Shown here: positions 1,458 to 11,667 of the stretch, in pieces
Numbering within the stretch: the stretch's first letter is position 1
How the letters are laid out: every line of letters begins with the position of its first letter
From: a virus
DNA: 12,658 bases
Strand: one strand, 5' to 3'
Virus genome (UHGV): UHGV-1796775
The notes under the pieces: generated by a model
Seen by the model: the letters and a program-made list of their open reading frames with translations, nothing else
What the model was told of the DNA's origin: nothing
Databases searched by the model: none
Position numbers and translations under genes: made by a program

Positions 1458-1923
1458 GGTTGAATAGCTCCTTGATACGAGAGCGTCGCTTATCGCGATC
1501 TCCCTTATCAGGTGTCACGTCTTCAACTTGCGACTGCTCTTTGAGGCCCAAATCACGGGCGATGATGTTAGCGTTGAGAAGGTCAGCGGCTGCGCCAGAG
1601 AATTTCTGGTCGTAGATGATGTCTTCCGCTCGTGATGTGACGTCAGAAAAACCTTCCATTGACCGGAAGGTTCCCCATGTTTGCCTGGTGATATCAAGGA
1701 AGGTACACAATCCTGAAATAGTCATGGCTCGCATCTTAGGGACATTAGCCTTAATTATTTCTCCCTGATATGAAAATACCTTACCCTCCCATAGCGGGTT
1801 ATCATCAGCCCACTCGAAGTATTCACAACAAGCAGCCCACAGCGCCTCAGGCGATTCGAATTTAGGATTTCGCCCATGACTACTGCGGGCCTCCCAAAAT
1901 CGGTTGCCCTTTGGTGCTGCCAT
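1435..1923 (-). CDS. terS: Terminase small subunit (P22 gp3-like), 162 aa
   Basis: ORF track 1435..1929; I prefer the ATG at 1923 ([17 protein letters not shown]...), which has better spacing from a GTGAG Shine-Dalgarno than the ATG at 1929. The N-terminal sequence is characteristic of P22-type small terminases from memory. Confidence 0.8.
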
Positions 1924-1958
1924 ATTCATCTCACTTATTTGTTATTTCAGGTTGAGCA

Positions 1959-2201
1959 TCATGCTCCGGTAGTGAACAGGTCTAACGCTTCCTTCGATTT
2001 ACGCACCGCTTCGATAGTTCGGGTCGTGATATCTGAATTAGCGCCGCCTGACTGGAAGTGAATTTTGAATAGCTCAAGCTTCAGCTCGTCAGTGCCAATG
2101 AACTGAAATGCCTCCTCTGCGGCTGCGTTCTGGTTCATGACCAGTTTGTAAATCTCTAACTGGAATTTCTGTTCTTCAGTCATGGGAATAATCTCTGCCA
2201 T
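1959..2201 (-). CDS. Hypothetical protein, 80 aa
   Basis: Minus-strand ORF with ATG at 2201 and an alternative ATG at 2183. No convincing RBS for the first ATG. It sits between the lysis and packaging modules; no recognisable motif. Confidence 0.5.
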   Translation of the reverse strand: MAEIIPMTEEQKFQLEIYKLVMNQNAAAEEAFQFIGTDELKLELFKIHFQSGGANSDITTRTIEAVRKSKEALDLFTTGA

Positions 2202-2304
2202 TGTTGGCTACATTTATCCGTTAAAAGGGATATCAGTTAAGTTATCCCGTGTAGGGTATAAGCCATTATCAAAGCCACTCTGTAGGGAATGGCTTTTGTA
2301 ATAA

Positions 2305-2685
2305 CTACTGTTCGCTTAGCTTCTGCTTCAGCAAGTAACCTTCTAGCATCCAGATTTTGTTTACAGCATTTTGCCGGGCAATCTTCCGACCAATTTCTGC
2401 ATCAAAATTTTCCGGACTTGCACAGGCACTCTCTCCGGTGACGGTGAAGCCATTCTTCAGCACCAGTACGCAGAAAGTGAGCAACTTCAATGGCGATAAA
2501 TCACGATCGCCTTCTTCTGGTTTTTCTCTGCCACAATATTCGTTGCTGGAAATGGCACCATTACGTCCATCATAAGCAGTAAAGTAATGCTCGCTTTTAA
2601 TCACGTCTTCGATGTGCTGCGGGGTGATTCGCGGTGCCGTTTTTCCTTTCTCAACGATTTCTTTTTCGATTTGCTGGTCGTTCAT
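2305..2685 (-). CDS. Hypothetical phage protein, 126 aa
   Basis: Minus-strand ORF with ATG at 2685 and an AGGGT Shine-Dalgarno about 8 nt upstream. Its stop codon is immediately followed by a conserved hairpin element. Function unknown. Confidence 0.6.
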   Translation of the reverse strand: MNDQQIEKEIVEKGKTAPRITPQHIEDVIKSEHYFTAYDGRNGAISSNEYCGREKPEEGDRDLSPLKLLTFCVLVLKNGFTVTGESACASPENFDAEIGRKIARQNAVNKIWMLEGYLLKQKLSEQ

Positions 2686-2911
2686 AATTATGACCCTGTG
2701 GAGTGGTTGCTTGATTAGGATGTCTTTCCATCAGTCCGCCACCACAAAGAATCTTTTTTGCCATAAGGCAGGAGGTTCATCTTTCAGTGGCTGCCAGTGT
2801 TATTTCCCCACTTACTGGCTTGGGTTGTTTCGTGGTACTGCCGTTAACTGGTTACCCAGAATAAATTCCGGTTTCATTATCAAGCCCACCCGTAGATAGG
2901 CTTTGTAATGG

Positions 2912-3199
2912 CTACTTCTTCAGAAATGATTCGATGAACTCACGCCGGGGATGACGATAGTTCAGAATATCTTCTGGCATCCTCATAAAGCGGTTGTTGC
3001 CGTCTTTGGCAGTAACAAAACAGCTGTGAACTCCGCAGACATCCGTTTTGATTGTGTCGCTATACTCAAAAAGCAACTGAGCCATCTTCTCTTGCCATTC
3101 TGGCGGCATAGCCTCCATGAATACTCGCGGCATCACGCAGAACGGCGCATGCGTAAGACCAAACCACAGTTGCAGGTCTTTACGATATTCTTCATCCAT
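2912..3199 (-). CDS. Hypothetical protein, 95 aa
   Basis: Minus-strand ORF with ATG at 3199 and an AAGGT Shine-Dalgarno about 7 nt upstream. It is preceded by an intrinsic-terminator-like hairpin and followed by a conserved hairpin element. No recognisable motif. Confidence 0.55.
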   Translation of the reverse strand: MDEEYRKDLQLWFGLTHAPFCVMPRVFMEAMPPEWQEKMAQLLFEYSDTIKTDVCGVHSCFVTAKDGNNRFMRMPEDILNYRHPRREFIESFLKK

Positions 3200-3217
3200 C
3201 GTCTTTACCTTTGTTGC

Positions 3218-3242
3218 AATAAAAATCCCCGCAAATGCGAGG
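3218..3242 (-). terminator. Intrinsic terminator-like hairpin downstream of Rz
   Basis: Minus-strand RNA CCUCGC-AUUU-GCGGGG followed by AUUUUUAUU: a 6-bp GC-rich stem, 4-nt loop and U-tract, lying 19 nt upstream of the 95-aa ORF start. Confidence 0.5.
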
Positions 3243-3417
3243 CTAAATCCTGGTATTTGTAATGACTGGCTCTTATCTCAACGCAGCCCCTTACCGCGCG
3301 CCAGATGCTCAATATCAAGCATCAGCAATGAGATGTTTAATCTGGATTCACTCCAGAAGTGATCACCACCCTGTCTACAGAGCCAGATGTGAAGGATGAT
3401 GAGTAAAATTATCGCTA

Positions 3418-3855
3418 TCATCGAAGGCATTGCGTCCTGATGTATTCCTGCAGGTAGTTAACCTGCGCGGTTATCCTGTCGATTCCACTTCGGAGACGGT
3501 AATAATTGAGTTCAGCATCTGCTGTAAGTCCTGGACTTTCTCCATCGCCCATGCCGCTGGCTCCGGTCGTTGACTTTGCACAGGTGGCGGCGACTTGCAG
3601 GCGCTTACGCCCAGCAGAAACATCAGCACGGAGACTTTCGATAGTCGCGTTAGCATCAGCAAGCTCCTTTGTATATCTGGCGTCGAGTTCTGCTACATCA
3701 CGTTGACGCTTCTGCATGTCAGCGATTGTGGATGTGGCCTTATCGCGCTGCTCTTTGTAGGCGATGGCGTTATCACGGTAATGATTAACCGCCCATGACA
3801 GACAGACGATGATGCAGATAACCAGAGCGGAGATAATCGCGGTGACTCTGCTCAT
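3418..3855 (-). CDS. Rz: Rz i-spanin (inner-membrane spanin subunit), 145 aa
   Basis: ATG at 3855 overlaps the R stop (ATGA). N-terminal TM segment [23 protein letters not shown] matches lambda Rz from memory; the rest is homologous but diverged. Rz1 is embedded in the +1 frame. Confidence 0.85.
3471..3656 (-). CDS. Rz1: Rz1 o-spanin (outer-membrane lipoprotein), 61 aa
   Basis: Embedded inside Rz in another frame. ATG at 3656 with AAGGAG 7 nt upstream (the ORF track's 3662 start is a TTG). Signal peptide with lipobox VSAC followed by a proline-rich stretch, as expected for Rz1. Confidence 0.75.
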
Positions 3856-4328
3856 ACCTCAATCTCTCTGACCGTTCCACCCGCTTCTTTGAATTTTGCA
3901 ATCAGGCTGTCAGCCTTATGCTCGAACTGACCATAACCAGCGCCAGGCAGTGAAGCCCAGATATTGCTGCAACGGTCGATAGCCTGACGAATATCACCGC
4001 GATCAATCATCGGCAAAGCGCCACGCTCCTTAATCTGCTGCAATGCAACAGCATCCTGGCTTTTAGGAGAGAAGTCTTTCAGGCCAAGCTGCTTACGATA
4101 GGCATCCCACCAACGGGAAAGAAGCTGGTAACGCCCGGCGGCTGTTGATTTGAGTTTTGGGTTTAGCGTGACAAGTTTGCGAGGGTGATCAGAGTAATCA
4201 GTGAATAGCTCTCCGCCTACAATGACGTCATAACCATGATTTCTGGTTTTCTGTCGTCCGTTATCAGTCCCCTCTGACCACGCCAGCATATCGAGGAACG
4301 CCTTACGTTGATTATTGATTTCCACCAT
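3852..4328 (-). CDS. R: Endolysin R (lambda-type lytic transglycosylase), 158 aa
   Basis: Translation [39 protein letters not shown]... matches lambda R from memory nearly residue for residue. Start overlaps the S 3' end. Confidence 0.93.
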
Positions 4329-9341: not shown

Positions 9342-10778
9342 TCAGAATCCTCCTTTCTTCTTGGACTGCGGTTCCTCGCGTTCACGGCGGCGCATTTCAG
9401 CAGACTGTTGGTCTGTGTCATAAATAGCGCCATTTGCCTGAATGCAATACACCGTGCCGGTATTGCCATGACGATTGAGACGAAGGATTAGTTCAGTTTC
9501 ACCAGGTGGAACACTGTCATCAAAAGCGCCTTCACGATGGATCCCCACCCAATAATCGCAATCCTGTTCAATCTGCCCTGTATCTCGTGAGTCACTTGGT
9601 AATGGGCGTTTATTGGTTCGGCTTTCCAGTGCGCGGTTAAGCTGCGTCAGAAGCACAACAACGCAATCAAGCTCTTTGGCAAGGTTCTTCAGTCCTTTGG
9701 TGATCATGCCGTAGGCAAGGTCGTTGCGATCGGCCTTCTCAGCGGTCATTAGTGTCAGGTAATCGACCAGAATCATGCCAACACATCCTTTTTCTCGCTT
9801 GATTCGACGGCTTTCGCTGACGATTTGAGCCAGAGATAATCCCGGCGTGTCGTCGATGTAAAGCAGGTCGATTTCACTCAAGCGATTGGCTGTTTCGATC
9901 GCCCTGTTGAAGTCACCATCGTAATCACCCTGATAGCCGTCATCAGCGTCATTTGTCGCCGGAAGGTAAAAAATATTCGGGTTAACACCTGACTTCTGTC
10001 CTACCAGTTTTTCCAGTATCTGGTCACCGGGCATTTCAAGGCTGAACATCAGAGCAGGCTTTTTCTCATGCACTGCGCAGTTGATTGCCATCTGGCTGTA
10101 TAGTGTCGTTTTCCCCATCTTAGGGCGAGCGCCAATGACAAACAGAGAGCCTTTCACCAGACCTTTCGGTGACAGCATCCTGTCCAGCGATGGGATCCCT
10201 GTGCTCATTCCTCGCTGTTCGCCTGACGGGTCAAATCGCTTCTCAAGGTCGCTAACCCAGTCTTCCATGACCTCACCAAATGAGCGAAGGCCGCGACGCG
10301 ATCCGGTTTTTGCATGGTCTGTCAGTTGCGTGAAAATCGCCTGAATAGCTTCGTACTTCTGCGTTGCAGTCATTCCGTTGCGGGAATAGAGCAATTCCGT
10401 CGCTTCAGTCATGCGGTTGATGGCGTAGCGTTCCATTGCGGTTTCACGAACCTGCATTGCATAGGCAACGATGTTTGCGGCGCTTGGCGTGTTCTTTGCG
10501 ATCTCAGCGATATAAGCAAAACCGCCAACAGACGCCGTTAACGATTTACGCTCCAGTTCATCGAAAAGCGTCAGGCCATCTACTGGCTTTTGCTCCCGGT
10601 GCATTCTGGTTATTTCTTCGAAAAGGATTTTGTGTGGTCGGCTGTAAAATGAATCAGGCTTCAGCATCGCCAGAACTTTCTGGACGCGCTCACTGCTGTC
10701 ATCATCCAGAAGCAATCCACCAATCACCGCCTGCTCTGCCTCGATGCTATGGGGCGGCGCATAAAAATTATCGGTCAT
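9342..10778 (-). CDS. DnaB-family replicative DNA helicase, 478 aa
   Basis: Walker A GARPKMGKTT and conserved DnaB C-terminal domain blocks (LVDYLTLM, TGQIEQDCDY). ATG at 10778 with GAGGGTGA upstream (the ORF-track start at 10793 is a GTG). Overlaps the initiator gene end by 11 nt. Confidence 0.9.
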   Translation of the reverse strand: MTDNFYAPPHSIEAEQAVIGGLLLDDDSSERVQKVLAMLKPDSFYSRPHKILFEEITRMHREQKPVDGLTLFDELERKSLTASVGGFAYIAEIAKNTPSAANIVAYAMQVRETAMERYAINRMTEATELLYSRNGMTATQKYEAIQAIFTQLTDHAKTGSRRGLRSFGEVMEDWVSDLEKRFDPSGEQRGMSTGIPSLDRMLSPKGLVKGSLFVIGARPKMGKTTLYSQMAINCAVHEKKPALMFSLEMPGDQILEKLVGQKSGVNPNIFYLPATNDADDGYQGDYDGDFNRAIETANRLSEIDLLYIDDTPGLSLAQIVSESRRIKREKGCVGMILVDYLTLMTAEKADRNDLAYGMITKGLKNLAKELDCVVVLLTQLNRALESRTNKRPLPSDSRDTGQIEQDCDYWVGIHREGAFDDSVPPGETELILRLNRHGNTGTVYCIQANGAIYDTDQQSAEMRRREREEPQSKKKGGF

Positions 10779-11667
10779 CGTGTTCACCCTCACGAACTTT
10801 CAGGTAGGTATTGTCGTTAAGCAGGAAATCAAATCCCTTTTTGTGCCAGACAGTTCCGCGTTGATGGTTTGGACGCTCTTCGAACATCCATCGGCAATTT
10901 TCGCCTACGTAGCTCAAATAATTTCTCCAGTCCTGCATCGTGAACCCATGCCCGTCAAGCTGGCGGGTTATCACTCCGGCTTTGCGCCAGAACGTTCGGA
11001 TCTGGTTTTTACGCTTGTCATTCAGTGCGCGGATTCTTGGCGCTTCAGGAAGGATTTCGTGGTAAGCATCGACAACATCCTGACAGCTGACGGAAGGTTT
11101 TTTCTTGTCAGACTTTTTGTCTGCTGTGGCACTCTCTAATACGTCAGTATTAGAGATAATATTATTATATTCTTTATCTGTGGTAATTTGCTGGTAATCT
11201 GCTGGTACAGCATTGCTTACAGGCATTGGTATTGCTGGCTTTGAGGTGGTAATTTGCTGGTAATCTGCTGGTACAAAATTTGACTGATAATCGTCATATT
11301 TCTCTACCGAGAAAACTGAGAATTTACCGTGTGAAACCCAGTCAATCATGCCGAGTTTTTTGAACTTTCTAAGCAGGTACTGAACGCGATCTGGTTTGAG
11401 TCCTGTTTCAAACGCCAGAGAGTTTCTACCGCCAAGTAGCTTCCCTCTGCCTACCAGAATTTCTCCTGCGTCAGTCATTACATACTCAGGCGTATGCTTT
11501 GCTTTGAGGATTAAGTGAACCCACAGATGCGCAGCTTCTGCGTCCTTGTAAAACGGCACATCCATAATTTTACGGTGCAGCAAGGCATACCCCTTACCGC
11601 TGCTTTGATGCGGTTGTTGTAGCCTTCTGGCCTCTCTGGCTTCGGCTAGATTAGATATGTTACTCAT
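10768..11667 (-). CDS. Replication initiator (lambda O-like / P22 gp18-like), 299 aa, containing the origin
   Basis: ATG at 11667 with AAGGAG upstream. Iteron repeats and an AT-rich tract lie inside the coding sequence, giving the repeated peptide [10 protein letters not shown]. Followed directly by the helicase gene, as in lambdoid replication modules. Confidence 0.85.
11134..11178. promoter_or_regulatory. Origin AT-rich unwinding region with a 22-bp perfect palindrome
   Basis: CTCTAATAC-GTCA-GTATTAGAG (11134-11155; 9-bp perfect arms) followed by AT-rich ATAATATTATTATATTCTTTATC, immediately adjacent to the iterons. Confidence 0.6.
11180..11275. repeat. Origin iterons (ori) inside the initiator gene
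   Basis: Two exact 28-bp copies of GGTAATTTGCTGGTAATCTGCTGGTACA at 11182-11209 and 11248-11275, each made of two ~12-bp units GGTAAT(T/C)TGCTG. A degenerate unit sits between them (GGTATTGCTGG, about 11229-11239). Confidence 0.8.

Follow-up and report, generated by a model that had tools for sequence, protein, structure and literature searches.

A covarying stem-loop family at the boundaries of exchangeable cassettes in the late region of lambdoid phages

Between the lysis genes and the packaging genes of lambdoid phages, many unrelated ORFs have been joined, lost, and exchanged at one constant sequence, a short hairpin. The structure of this stem-loop is under selection, with a constant outer stem and internal loop and a covarying inner stem, and folding takes place on the sense strand. 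The hairpin is not a classic terminator, promoter, or coding element, and the family was previously unannotated.

The window, i.e. the whole stretch of 12,658 nt that was analyzed (UHGV virus genome UHGV-1796775), belongs to a P22-like phage (Lederbergvirus; Sf6/HK620/Huey-type) and carries the late genes on the minus strand, as judged from the ORF layout and BLAST. The gene order on the minus strand is Q, holin, endolysin, Rz, a 50-aa ORF, a 95-aa ORF, a 126-aa ORF, hkbM (an 80-aa DUF2560 gene), and the genes for the small and then the large terminase. Two full copies of the hairpin, el1 and el2, were found, and both lie within the variable stretch from Rz to the terminase genes. The features of this stretch are, in minus-strand order:

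3278..3430, minus strand: 50-aa ORF, Sf6 gp65-like (phrog_11822), after Rz; the constant left flank.
3256..3264, minus strand: partial left-arm copy CATTACAAA, identified by sequence; left border of slot 1, 5′ of the 95-aa ORF.
3217..3242, minus strand: terminator-like hairpin T1, CCTCGCATTTGCGGGG with the tail ATTTTTATTG, called by the terminator scan; left border of slot 1.
3200..3212, minus strand: RBS leader AAAGGTAAAGACG, directly 5′ of the ATG of the 95-aa ORF.
2912..3199, minus strand: slot-1 cassette, the 95-aa ORF; TAG stop at 2912-2914, 2 nt before the hairpin base.
2872..2913, minus strand: hairpin el1, sense sequence AGCCAUUACAAAGCCUAUCUACGGGUGGGCUUGAUAAUGAAA, 55.9 bits with the covariance model; after the slot-1 cassette.
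2686..2871, minus strand: non-coding spacer from el1 to the slot-2 cassette, conserved in Sf6, Huey, HK620, and P22.
2305..2685, minus strand: slot-2 cassette, a 126-aa protein of the N4 gp49 / Sf6 gp66 family (PF13876); TAG stop at 2305-2307.
2261..2306, minus strand: hairpin el2, 62.1 bits with the covariance model; after the slot-2 cassette, 62 nt upstream of the hkbM start codon.
2223..2248, minus strand: second small hairpin, GGGATA-N10-TATCCC followed by TTTT, from sequence and centroid fold; between el2 and hkbM.
1959..2201, minus strand: hkbM / DUF2560 gene (PF10834, E-value 1e-43); the constant gene 3′ of el2.

At the left border of slot 1, T1 is kept 5′ of differing cassettes in Huey, HK620, and lambda-like loci, and the leader AAAGGTAAAGACG is common to unrelated first genes in other loci (KilA-N, Rha, and T5orf172-like). 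In many loci, a leader of ~70 nt that ends in AAAGGTAAAGACGCT-ATG is common to unrelated first genes of slot 1. For the 95-aa ORF that fills this slot in the window, the Pfam search gave no match, and the PHROGs match was confined to the C-terminal part of phrog_3527. The same site contains no gene in Sf6, and at empty sites, including that of Sf6, the hairpin stands directly 3′ of the 50-aa gp65-like ORF. The spacer between the two slots contains only short, non-conserved ORFs. The gp66 gene of slot 2 is missing from HK620 and P22, where a diverged el2 hairpin follows directly after the spacer. The second small hairpin is present beside el2 in most loci and absent in L091 and L008, and in more distant phages hkbM has hairpins on either side.

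An earlier note on this sequence had described two related imperfect hairpins abutting the stop codons of consecutive small ORFs. They are real, and the two strings given for them occur exactly at 2875-2914 and 2264-2307. Read on the minus strand, each string has the TAG stop of the upstream ORF at its start and AUG at its end, and on the sense strand of the late operon the hairpins begin 2-3 nt past the stops that end the 95-aa and 126-aa ORFs. The note was right about the hairpins as such but placed GTAG in the loop; the functional strand is the minus strand, and the sense loop is CUAC. The stem of el2 is longer than had been stated (2261-2306), and the count of two copies holds for full hairpins but overlooked the third, partial copy of the left arm at 3256-3264.

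The pattern ATTACAAA-N17-23-TTGATAATG has two matches on the minus strand and none elsewhere in the window, and none of 200 dinucleotide-preserving shuffles matched it. A covariance model (R1), built from 11 variants, retrieved no further copies in the window beyond el1 and el2. The sense RNA of el2 folds with −20.6 kcal/mol (z −5.2) and that of el1 with −18.3 kcal/mol (z −3.5), while the antisense folds are weaker (−16.3 and −11.8 kcal/mol). The helix of el2 comprises 8 + 10 bp around a 2 × 2 loop, and that of el1 5 + 9 bp. No U-run is found 3′ of either stem and the terminator scan called neither el1 nor el2, in agreement with the earlier view that these are not classic terminators. No promoter was called anywhere in the window. 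Searches of Rfam release 15 returned no match, either for the whole window at gathering thresholds or for positions 1900-3450 at a permissive E-value of up to 5. Nor are the two elements a duplicated coding segment, as the earlier note had held. Beyond the window, the el1-type element comes after different genes in Huey, HK620, and numerous IMG/VR loci, and the position of el2 is the same in 80 related loci.

In its general layout, the family has an outer stem (C)AUUA/UAAU(G), followed by a 2 × 2 internal loop (CA/GA), 9-10 bp of inner stem, and 3-7 nt of loop. The outer stem CAUUA/UAAUG is near-invariant, and one U·G wobble is nearly fixed. The inner stem occurs in 32 haplotypes among 65 distinct sense copies. 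Positions A5, U6, C9, A10, G37, A38, A40, A41, and U42 are unchanged in these 65 copies, which had been filtered on C9-A10 and G37-A38; all rows that failed this filter were reverse-strand matches. At least six inner-stem classes keep the pairing and differ at most positions, among them classes with little common sequence (AAAGCCAUUC/GAGUGGCUUU, GCAGGCAUUC/GAGUGCCUGU, and GGUGGCCUUU/GAGGGCCAUC). The 3′ apical arm is G-rich in all deep variants.

A covariance model search of related phages had been proposed in the earlier note, and it showed that the structure is conserved and covaries. In the seed alignment, 94.7% of the cells are paired and 9 of the 17 pairs are double-changed, compared with 33-52% pairing when the partners were slid by 1-3 columns. 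For the 54 distinct rows from hkbM-anchored loci, the fraction of paired cells is 93.6%, with double changes in 12 of the 17 pairs. In an independent set of greater diversity, which was anchored on Acb2-like genes and has 72 distinct rows, the values are 95.3% and 14 of 17. None of 500 shuffles of this latter set reached the observed value on any of five measures (slid controls, 36-51%). The shuffle statistics should not be read as probabilities, since all the alignments had been fitted to the model and their sequences share common descent. Sliding the 3′ partners preserves relatedness, and this control gave 32-52% pairing over the three alignments.

The identity of the folding strand follows from the non-canonical pairs. 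The alignment contains 146 G·U cells versus 21 A·C cells, the latter mostly in the outermost, optional pairs, which identifies the sense RNA as the strand that folds. The sense RNA is more stable than the antisense RNA in 60 of the 65 haplotypes (mean −20.0 versus −15.3 kcal/mol), folds with DNA parameters are weak (~−9 kcal/mol), and all strong model matches are on the late-gene strand. The G·U excess, the stability of the sense RNA, and the strand of the matches together show that the structure belongs to the late mRNA. The covariation and this strand asymmetry thus support the earlier suggestion of a structured RNA element.

The family was found in P22 (one copy), Sf6, HK620, Huey, Stx2 phage 1717, and the siphovirus mEp460. 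The whole Sf6 genome contains only two copies detected with model R1, both between Rz and the packaging genes. In lambda-like phages whose terminases are of the Nu1/A type, the hairpin is located between Rz and the terminase genes, and further variants occur in contigs bearing other lysis-gene types. The scan of genome contigs based on hkbM yielded seven loci. A Citrobacter prophage keeps the hairpin although its hkbM protein is only 45% identical. An el1-like sequence is present in 1376 of 5426 complete E. coli genomes, i.e. in about a quarter. Recurrence at gene boundaries elsewhere, a check proposed in the earlier note, is seen across P22-like and lambda-like loci. No copy was found in lambda or in the K-12 prophages DLP12 and Qin, so that the published cleavage and 3′-end maps of K-12 are inapplicable. 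The hairpin is unannotated in the reference records of P22, Sf6, and HK620, and the Sf6 record has no feature at 37832-37873 or 38496-38541. It is not mentioned in the epsilon34 and BTP1 transcriptome papers, and a literature search, which did not cover the HK620 and Sf6 genome papers, found no description of it.

In complete loci, at least one copy of the hairpin is present in every case, while the surrounding cassettes come and go. The spacings between landmarks vary widely among 84 related sequences, and el2 is fixed at 62 nt before hkbM. Upstream of the hairpin, 34 distal contexts were distinguished, and 92% of the context pairs share no more than 3 nt directly 5′ of ATTAC. In 45 of 114 upstream contexts, the stop codon of an ORF lies exactly 2-3 nt before ATTACA, and in several cassettes a classic terminator lies directly upstream of the hairpin. 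Empty sites were also found: Sf6 has an intact el1 without a gene in front of it, and L031 and L072 have no cassette and a single hairpin. Hybrid hairpins, which combine the inner stem of el1 with the 3′ flank of el2 and lack the interval between them, occur in L029, L063, and Stx phage 1717, and are direct traces of crossing-over inside the hairpins. The joining of 34 upstream contexts within 0-3 nt, the empty sites, and the el1/el2 hybrids lend direct support to one of the options listed in the earlier note, a recombination boundary of a moron cassette.

The slot-1 insert of the window lies between the partial left arm CATTACAAA (3256-3264) and a complete hairpin. Since Sf6 has an intact hairpin at the point equivalent to 3256..3264, the slot-1 cassette is flanked by direct repeats of the arm. 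Distant phages contain arrays, e.g. Acb2-hairpin-x-hairpin-hkbM-hairpin, with up to four hairpins in 5 kb, and in these arrays the next gene often begins ~24 nt past the stem. The class of the hairpin goes with the upstream cassette, not with the downstream gene. As a hairpin is found 3′ of each swappable gene, it marks the gene-exchange sites of these phages.

Proteins of 35 families are encoded by genes that end no more than 80 nt upstream of a hairpin. Among them are Tad2-like (PF11195) and Acb2/Tad1-like (PF24729) proteins, so that some cassettes are anti-defense genes, as well as N4 gp49 / Sf6 gp66 (PF13876), DUF551, trypsin-like peptidase, Rha, KilA-N, and T5orf172/MUG113 nuclease-like proteins and many proteins without known function. 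The PHROGs search of the cassette proteins assigned no function. Neither the wide spread of the family nor the presence of anti-defense genes among the cassettes had been noticed in the earlier note.

With moderate confidence, we lean toward explaining the hairpin as an intercistronic mRNA stem-loop of the late operon that doubles as a constant linker for cassette exchange. The structural and the boundary parts of this explanation are close to certain, and the molecular role at the RNA level is what we infer. The stem-loop forms as sense RNA in the late transcript of lambdoid phages, which is Q-dependent, with one copy at the 3′ end of each accessory slot from the lysis to the packaging genes. 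In the polycistronic late mRNA, the quasi-continuous helix of ~16-20 bp would most likely represent an intercistronic structural element, acting as a barrier to 3′ exonucleases, as a double-strand-specific processing site of the RNase III type, or as both. Such a barrier or processing event would insulate the plug-in cassettes from the essential genes downstream. An element conserved for its RNA role would also supply a homology patch of ~40 nt, which phage or host recombination could then use for gene-by-gene swaps, probably alongside the conserved 5′ leader and T1.

In a P22-like prophage, the late genes form one large operon transcript (PMC7067206), and the lambda late transcript carries RNase III processing sites, according to the citation of Daniels et al. 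1988 in PMC7547250. The el1 helix (5 + 9 bp with a 2 × 2 loop) is short for a canonical RNase III substrate. The near-invariant CAUUACA/GAUAAUG module and the stop codon at a distance of 2-3 nt are unneeded by a simple exonuclease barrier, and they suggest a more specific recognition than the linker explanation covers. Homologous exchange, in addition, reshuffles joints that are already present, and the origin of dozens of joints at the same nucleotide is outside its reach.

A translation-coupling switch would provide one alternative, albeit an unlikely one. The ribosome that terminates after each cassette would melt the outer stem, unmask the AUG and the SD-like GRGKGG, and reload. It is in line with such a switch that the 3′ arm contains an AUG with GRGKGG 8 nt upstream, that both are covered by the 5′ arm, that AUG and GAYA hardly vary, with a G-rich 3′ apical arm in all deep variants, and that the conserved U·G wobble and the internal loop make the stem meltable. 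The stop codons exactly 2-3 nt before ATTACA in 45 of the 114 contexts would equally fit. However, the ORFs that start at the hairpin AUG comprise 3-60 codons, shift their frame among relatives, and have many amino-acid changes, and in some members the AUG is replaced by AUU, AUA, ACG, or GUG. The sequences GAGUGG and GGGUGG are only weakly SD-like, the downstream genes have their own RBS 20-60 nt further on, and several copies come after a terminator, not after a stop codon. A peptide encoded from the hairpin AUG was rejected as well, the 3-60 codons being unconserved.

It is quite unlikely that lambdoid phages possess a dedicated plug-and-play platform for cassettes, with the hairpin as its recognition element, in which the fold together with the stop codon 2-3 nt before it would direct either precise gene capture at the 5′ base or termination-coupled control. 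If so, the platform would be a phage counterpart of the integron and would serve, among other purposes, to shuffle anti-defense genes such as Tad2 and Acb2.

About as improbable is a hairpin without a function of its own, i.e. a hitch-hiking remnant, e.g. of an old terminator, the copies of which are similar through recent descent and frequent recombination. Many copies are near-identical, the phages of this group recombine often, and related sequences may beat column shuffles without any structure. Nevertheless, the slid-partner controls, in which relatedness is preserved, drop to 32-52% pairing, and at least six inner-stem classes still pair although they differ at most positions. The hairpin is also never lost from complete loci despite the turnover of cassettes, and it is retained beside a protein that is only 45% identical.

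Several properties of the boundaries would also be compatible with an attC-like DNA site, at which a recombinase or nuclease reads the folded single strand and inserts cassettes precisely at the 5′ base. The joints are precise to 0-3 nt in 34 contexts, direct repeats of the left arm CATTACAAA enclose an inserted segment, gene-hairpin arrays occur, the hairpin class is tied to the upstream cassette rather than to the downstream gene, and the structure is kept while the sequence of the inner stem is variable. We nevertheless regard such a site as very unlikely. No dedicated integrase or transposase is found beside the slots, core sites of the GTTRRRY type are absent, and the many G·U pairs would be weak as G·T in DNA, with DNA-parameter folds of ~−9 kcal/mol. 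In addition, the outer arms are conserved in sequence, as if homology-driven exchange sufficed.

It is highly improbable that the hairpin serves as an operator, with CAUUACA/GAUAAUG read by a sequence-specific ribonuclease or RNA-binding protein from the phage or the host. Inner-stem classes with hardly any sequence in common have an invariant outer stem and 2 × 2 loop, a pattern typical of protein-recognized hairpins, but no candidate protein was found and crossovers that homogenize the outer arms could give the same invariance. Equally improbable is a weak factor-independent terminator of morons acting on either strand, because, despite a GC-containing stem, A-rich 5′ and U-containing 3′ flanks (AUUACAAA / UUUGAUAAU), and UUUUGUAAU after the antisense el2, the terminator scan calls neither element, variants ending in CUCGACAAUG / CUUCGAUAAUGC lack a U-run on either strand, compensatory changes keep the A-U region as G-C pairs, several cassettes already have a classic terminator directly 5′ of the hairpin, and Q-modified polymerase reads through terminators.

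With the hairpin, the old “linker” hypothesis of modular phage evolution turns into a concrete, searchable object, i.e. a covarying RNA motif of ~43 nt that tags the slots holding exchangeable accessory genes of lambdoid phages. Since Tad2-like and Acb2/Tad1-like genes lie directly 5′ of the motif, a scan with the model is a cheap way of listing candidates for anti-defense and host-takeover genes, and by such scanning the 95-aa ORF of the window is one of these candidates. If the hairpin is a processing site or an insulator, it would furthermore be a compact natural part for multi-gene phage constructs.

The hairpin shares features with several classes of known elements. REP elements are imperfect palindromes of ~35-40 nt inside enterobacterial operons just past stop codons; at the RNA level they are barriers to 3′ exonucleases, and close to a stop codon they affect the translation of the upstream gene. 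They occur in hundreds of copies per chromosome and are associated with a RAYT transposase. The hairpin is likewise an imperfect palindrome within an operon just after stop codons, but it is present in one to four copies per phage, in one region, and without a RAYT transposase. To our knowledge, its sequence does not resemble the REP consensus.

In integrons, an attC site forms an imperfect hairpin 3′ of each promoter-less cassette, arrays are typical, and the structure is conserved more than the inner sequence; the system includes the IntI integrase, attI, and the core sites R″/R′ (RYYYAAC / GTTRRRY). The position 3′ of cassettes, the gene-hairpin arrays, and the stronger conservation of structure than of inner sequence are common to attC and the hairpin. 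In contrast to attC, the arms CATTACA/GATAATG are conserved in sequence and the fold is favored as sense-strand RNA. No IntI-type integrase, attI, or R/L core sites were found, the neighbors being lysis, accessory, and terminase genes.

RNase III processing sites span about two turns of double-stranded RNA, often with an internal loop, and their staggered cleavage in vivo depends on rnc. The intercistronic RNase III hairpins of T7 have an internal loop and lie some tens of nt ahead of the next start codon, and their cleavage leaves a protective 3′ stem. Like the RNase III sites of T7 and lambda, the hairpin has an internal loop, is placed between genes of a long phage transcript, and precedes the next start codon by some tens of nt, while its helices are shorter and without sequence similarity to these sites. 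Compared with an intrinsic terminator, it has the stable, GC-containing stem-loop (−18 to −21 kcal/mol) and lacks the U-tract, and this class was rejected; many family members end in CGAUAAUGC or CGACAAUGG, without a U-rich tract.

The closest analogues are the PeSLs (promoter-early stem-loops) of T4-type phages and the boundary sequences of lambdoid phages, and the hairpin resembles both in working as a recombination linker. PeSLs are conserved intergenic stem-loop motifs that flank non-essential ORFs in variable regions, consist of a strong sigma-70 promoter and a transcription-terminating stem-loop, and recombine with each other, which leads to insertions, deletions, and replacements (Arbiol et al. 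2010, PMC2839356; PMC4122927). The copies of the hairpin likewise border insertions, deletions, and replacements and recombine mutually. Unlike PeSLs, they belong to lambdoid phages, lie inside the late operon, and have a covarying stem around a fixed outer module. Their 3′ arm has a −35-like TYGAYA, but, across 166 members, −10 matches with a spacer of 16-18 were not better than those at random positions. A promoter in the 3′ arm was therefore rejected, given that no −10 box stands at the right spacing in the 166 members and none was called in the window. Having neither a promoter nor a terminator tail, the hairpin falls outside the definition of a PeSL.

The boundary or linker sequences of lambdoid phages are short, conserved, lie at module junctions, and have been proposed to focus homologous recombination and thereby to reassort genes (Susskind & Botstein 1978; Clark et al. 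2001, as cited in PMC3029335). The annotated boundary sequences of Sf6 (bsq2-7) lie at other coordinates according to the record, and, unlike the hairpin, the earlier boundary sequences are not described as structured or covarying in the Sf6, HK620, and P22 records. Like these sequences, and in the same group of phages, the hairpin is conserved exactly where the similarity of the flanking regions stops.

The left border of slot 1, the first of the two exchangeable accessory-gene sites between the Rz and terminase genes, is a second conserved border, in addition to the hairpin at which the slot ends (el1). It comprises T1, a terminator-like hairpin, and a leader that runs up to a start codon. 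The features of this region are:

3200-3242, minus strand: T1 and the leader ending in AAAGGTAAAGACGCT-ATG
2912-3199, minus strand: the 95-aa ORF, the slot-1 gene of the window
2686-2871, minus strand: a conserved spacer of ~190 nt between el1 and the gp66 cassette, i.e. the 126-aa gene of slot 2

T1 and the AAAGGTAAAGACGCT-ATG leader are conserved in six comparison loci (L003, L038, L032, L054, L042, and L029). The leader is common, up to the start codon, to unrelated first genes, i.e. those encoding KilA-N, Rha, T5orf172-like, and an unknown protein of 198 aa.

For the 95-aa ORF, the Pfam search gave no match, and the alignment with PHROGs was confined to the C-terminal part of phrog_3527 (positions 139-230 of 233). 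The ORF may be the remnant of a truncated gene or form a domain of its own. In other loci, the same slot holds Tad2-like genes, which makes the ORF a candidate for an anti-defence gene. In the Huey record (L001), the label “anti-CRISPR” is attached to both a gp66-family protein (382-762) and a 166-aa protein (997-1497). Pfam assigns the window counterpart of the former to PF13876, and a related protein of 173 aa (L026) to the Tad2-like family PF11195.

The ORFs of the spacer are all short. One of them (MNL[LQ]PYGKKDSLWWRTDGKTS...) extends into the HK620-type hairpin, and its stop codon lies in the hairpin loop. P22, too, has kept the spacer, with rha fused straight onto it. The start of the annotated P22 “orf25” (L092 2521-2598; BK000583 40329-40406) falls within the hairpin loop, which means that it is probably not a real gene.

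Downstream of el2, the hairpin that ends slot 2, the ribosome-binding region of the DUF2560 gene hkbM (2202-2218, minus strand) reads AAAUGUAGCCAACAAUG in the window versus AAACGGAGCCAACAAUG in Sf6, Huey, and HK620; GGAG has therefore been lost in the window phage. The hairpins, together with an hkbM that is 99-100% identical to that of the window, also occur in metagenome-assembled genomes (L087-L090) that bear the labels Bacillota, Collinsella, and Cellvibrionaceae; mis-binning of coliphage contigs is the most likely explanation. In more distant lambdoid phages (L289, L355, L343, and L365; about 2800-4100), an hkbM/DUF2560-like gene of 81 aa has a hairpin on each side and is followed by genes for an HNH endonuclease and the small terminase subunit. 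Because of these flanking hairpins, the “constant” hkbM gene also acts as a cassette.

In six sequences (L316, L310, L307, L320, L314, and L303; about 2391-2421), a shorter element related to the hairpin, UGCAAAAGGCAUUCACUGAGUGCCUUUGACA, is found ~80 nt upstream of an Acb2-like gene. This element is devoid of the AUUA/UAAU outer stem and has a perfect TTGACA at its end.

Elsewhere in the window, a 299-aa ORF contains a pair of repeats:

11180-11214 and 11246-11280, within the ORF 10768-11667 (minus strand): two 35-nt direct repeats

The copies share 94% identity, and each is composed of GGTAATYTGCTGGTA units. They look like origin iterons inside a replication-initiator gene.

The T1 stem (3227-3242, minus strand) is CCUCGC-AUUU-GCGGGG, followed by AU. 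Together with this AU, it presumably matches the E. coli type I-E CRISPR repeat in geometry and, almost completely, in its stem, a resemblance for which a GC-rich terminator alone may account.
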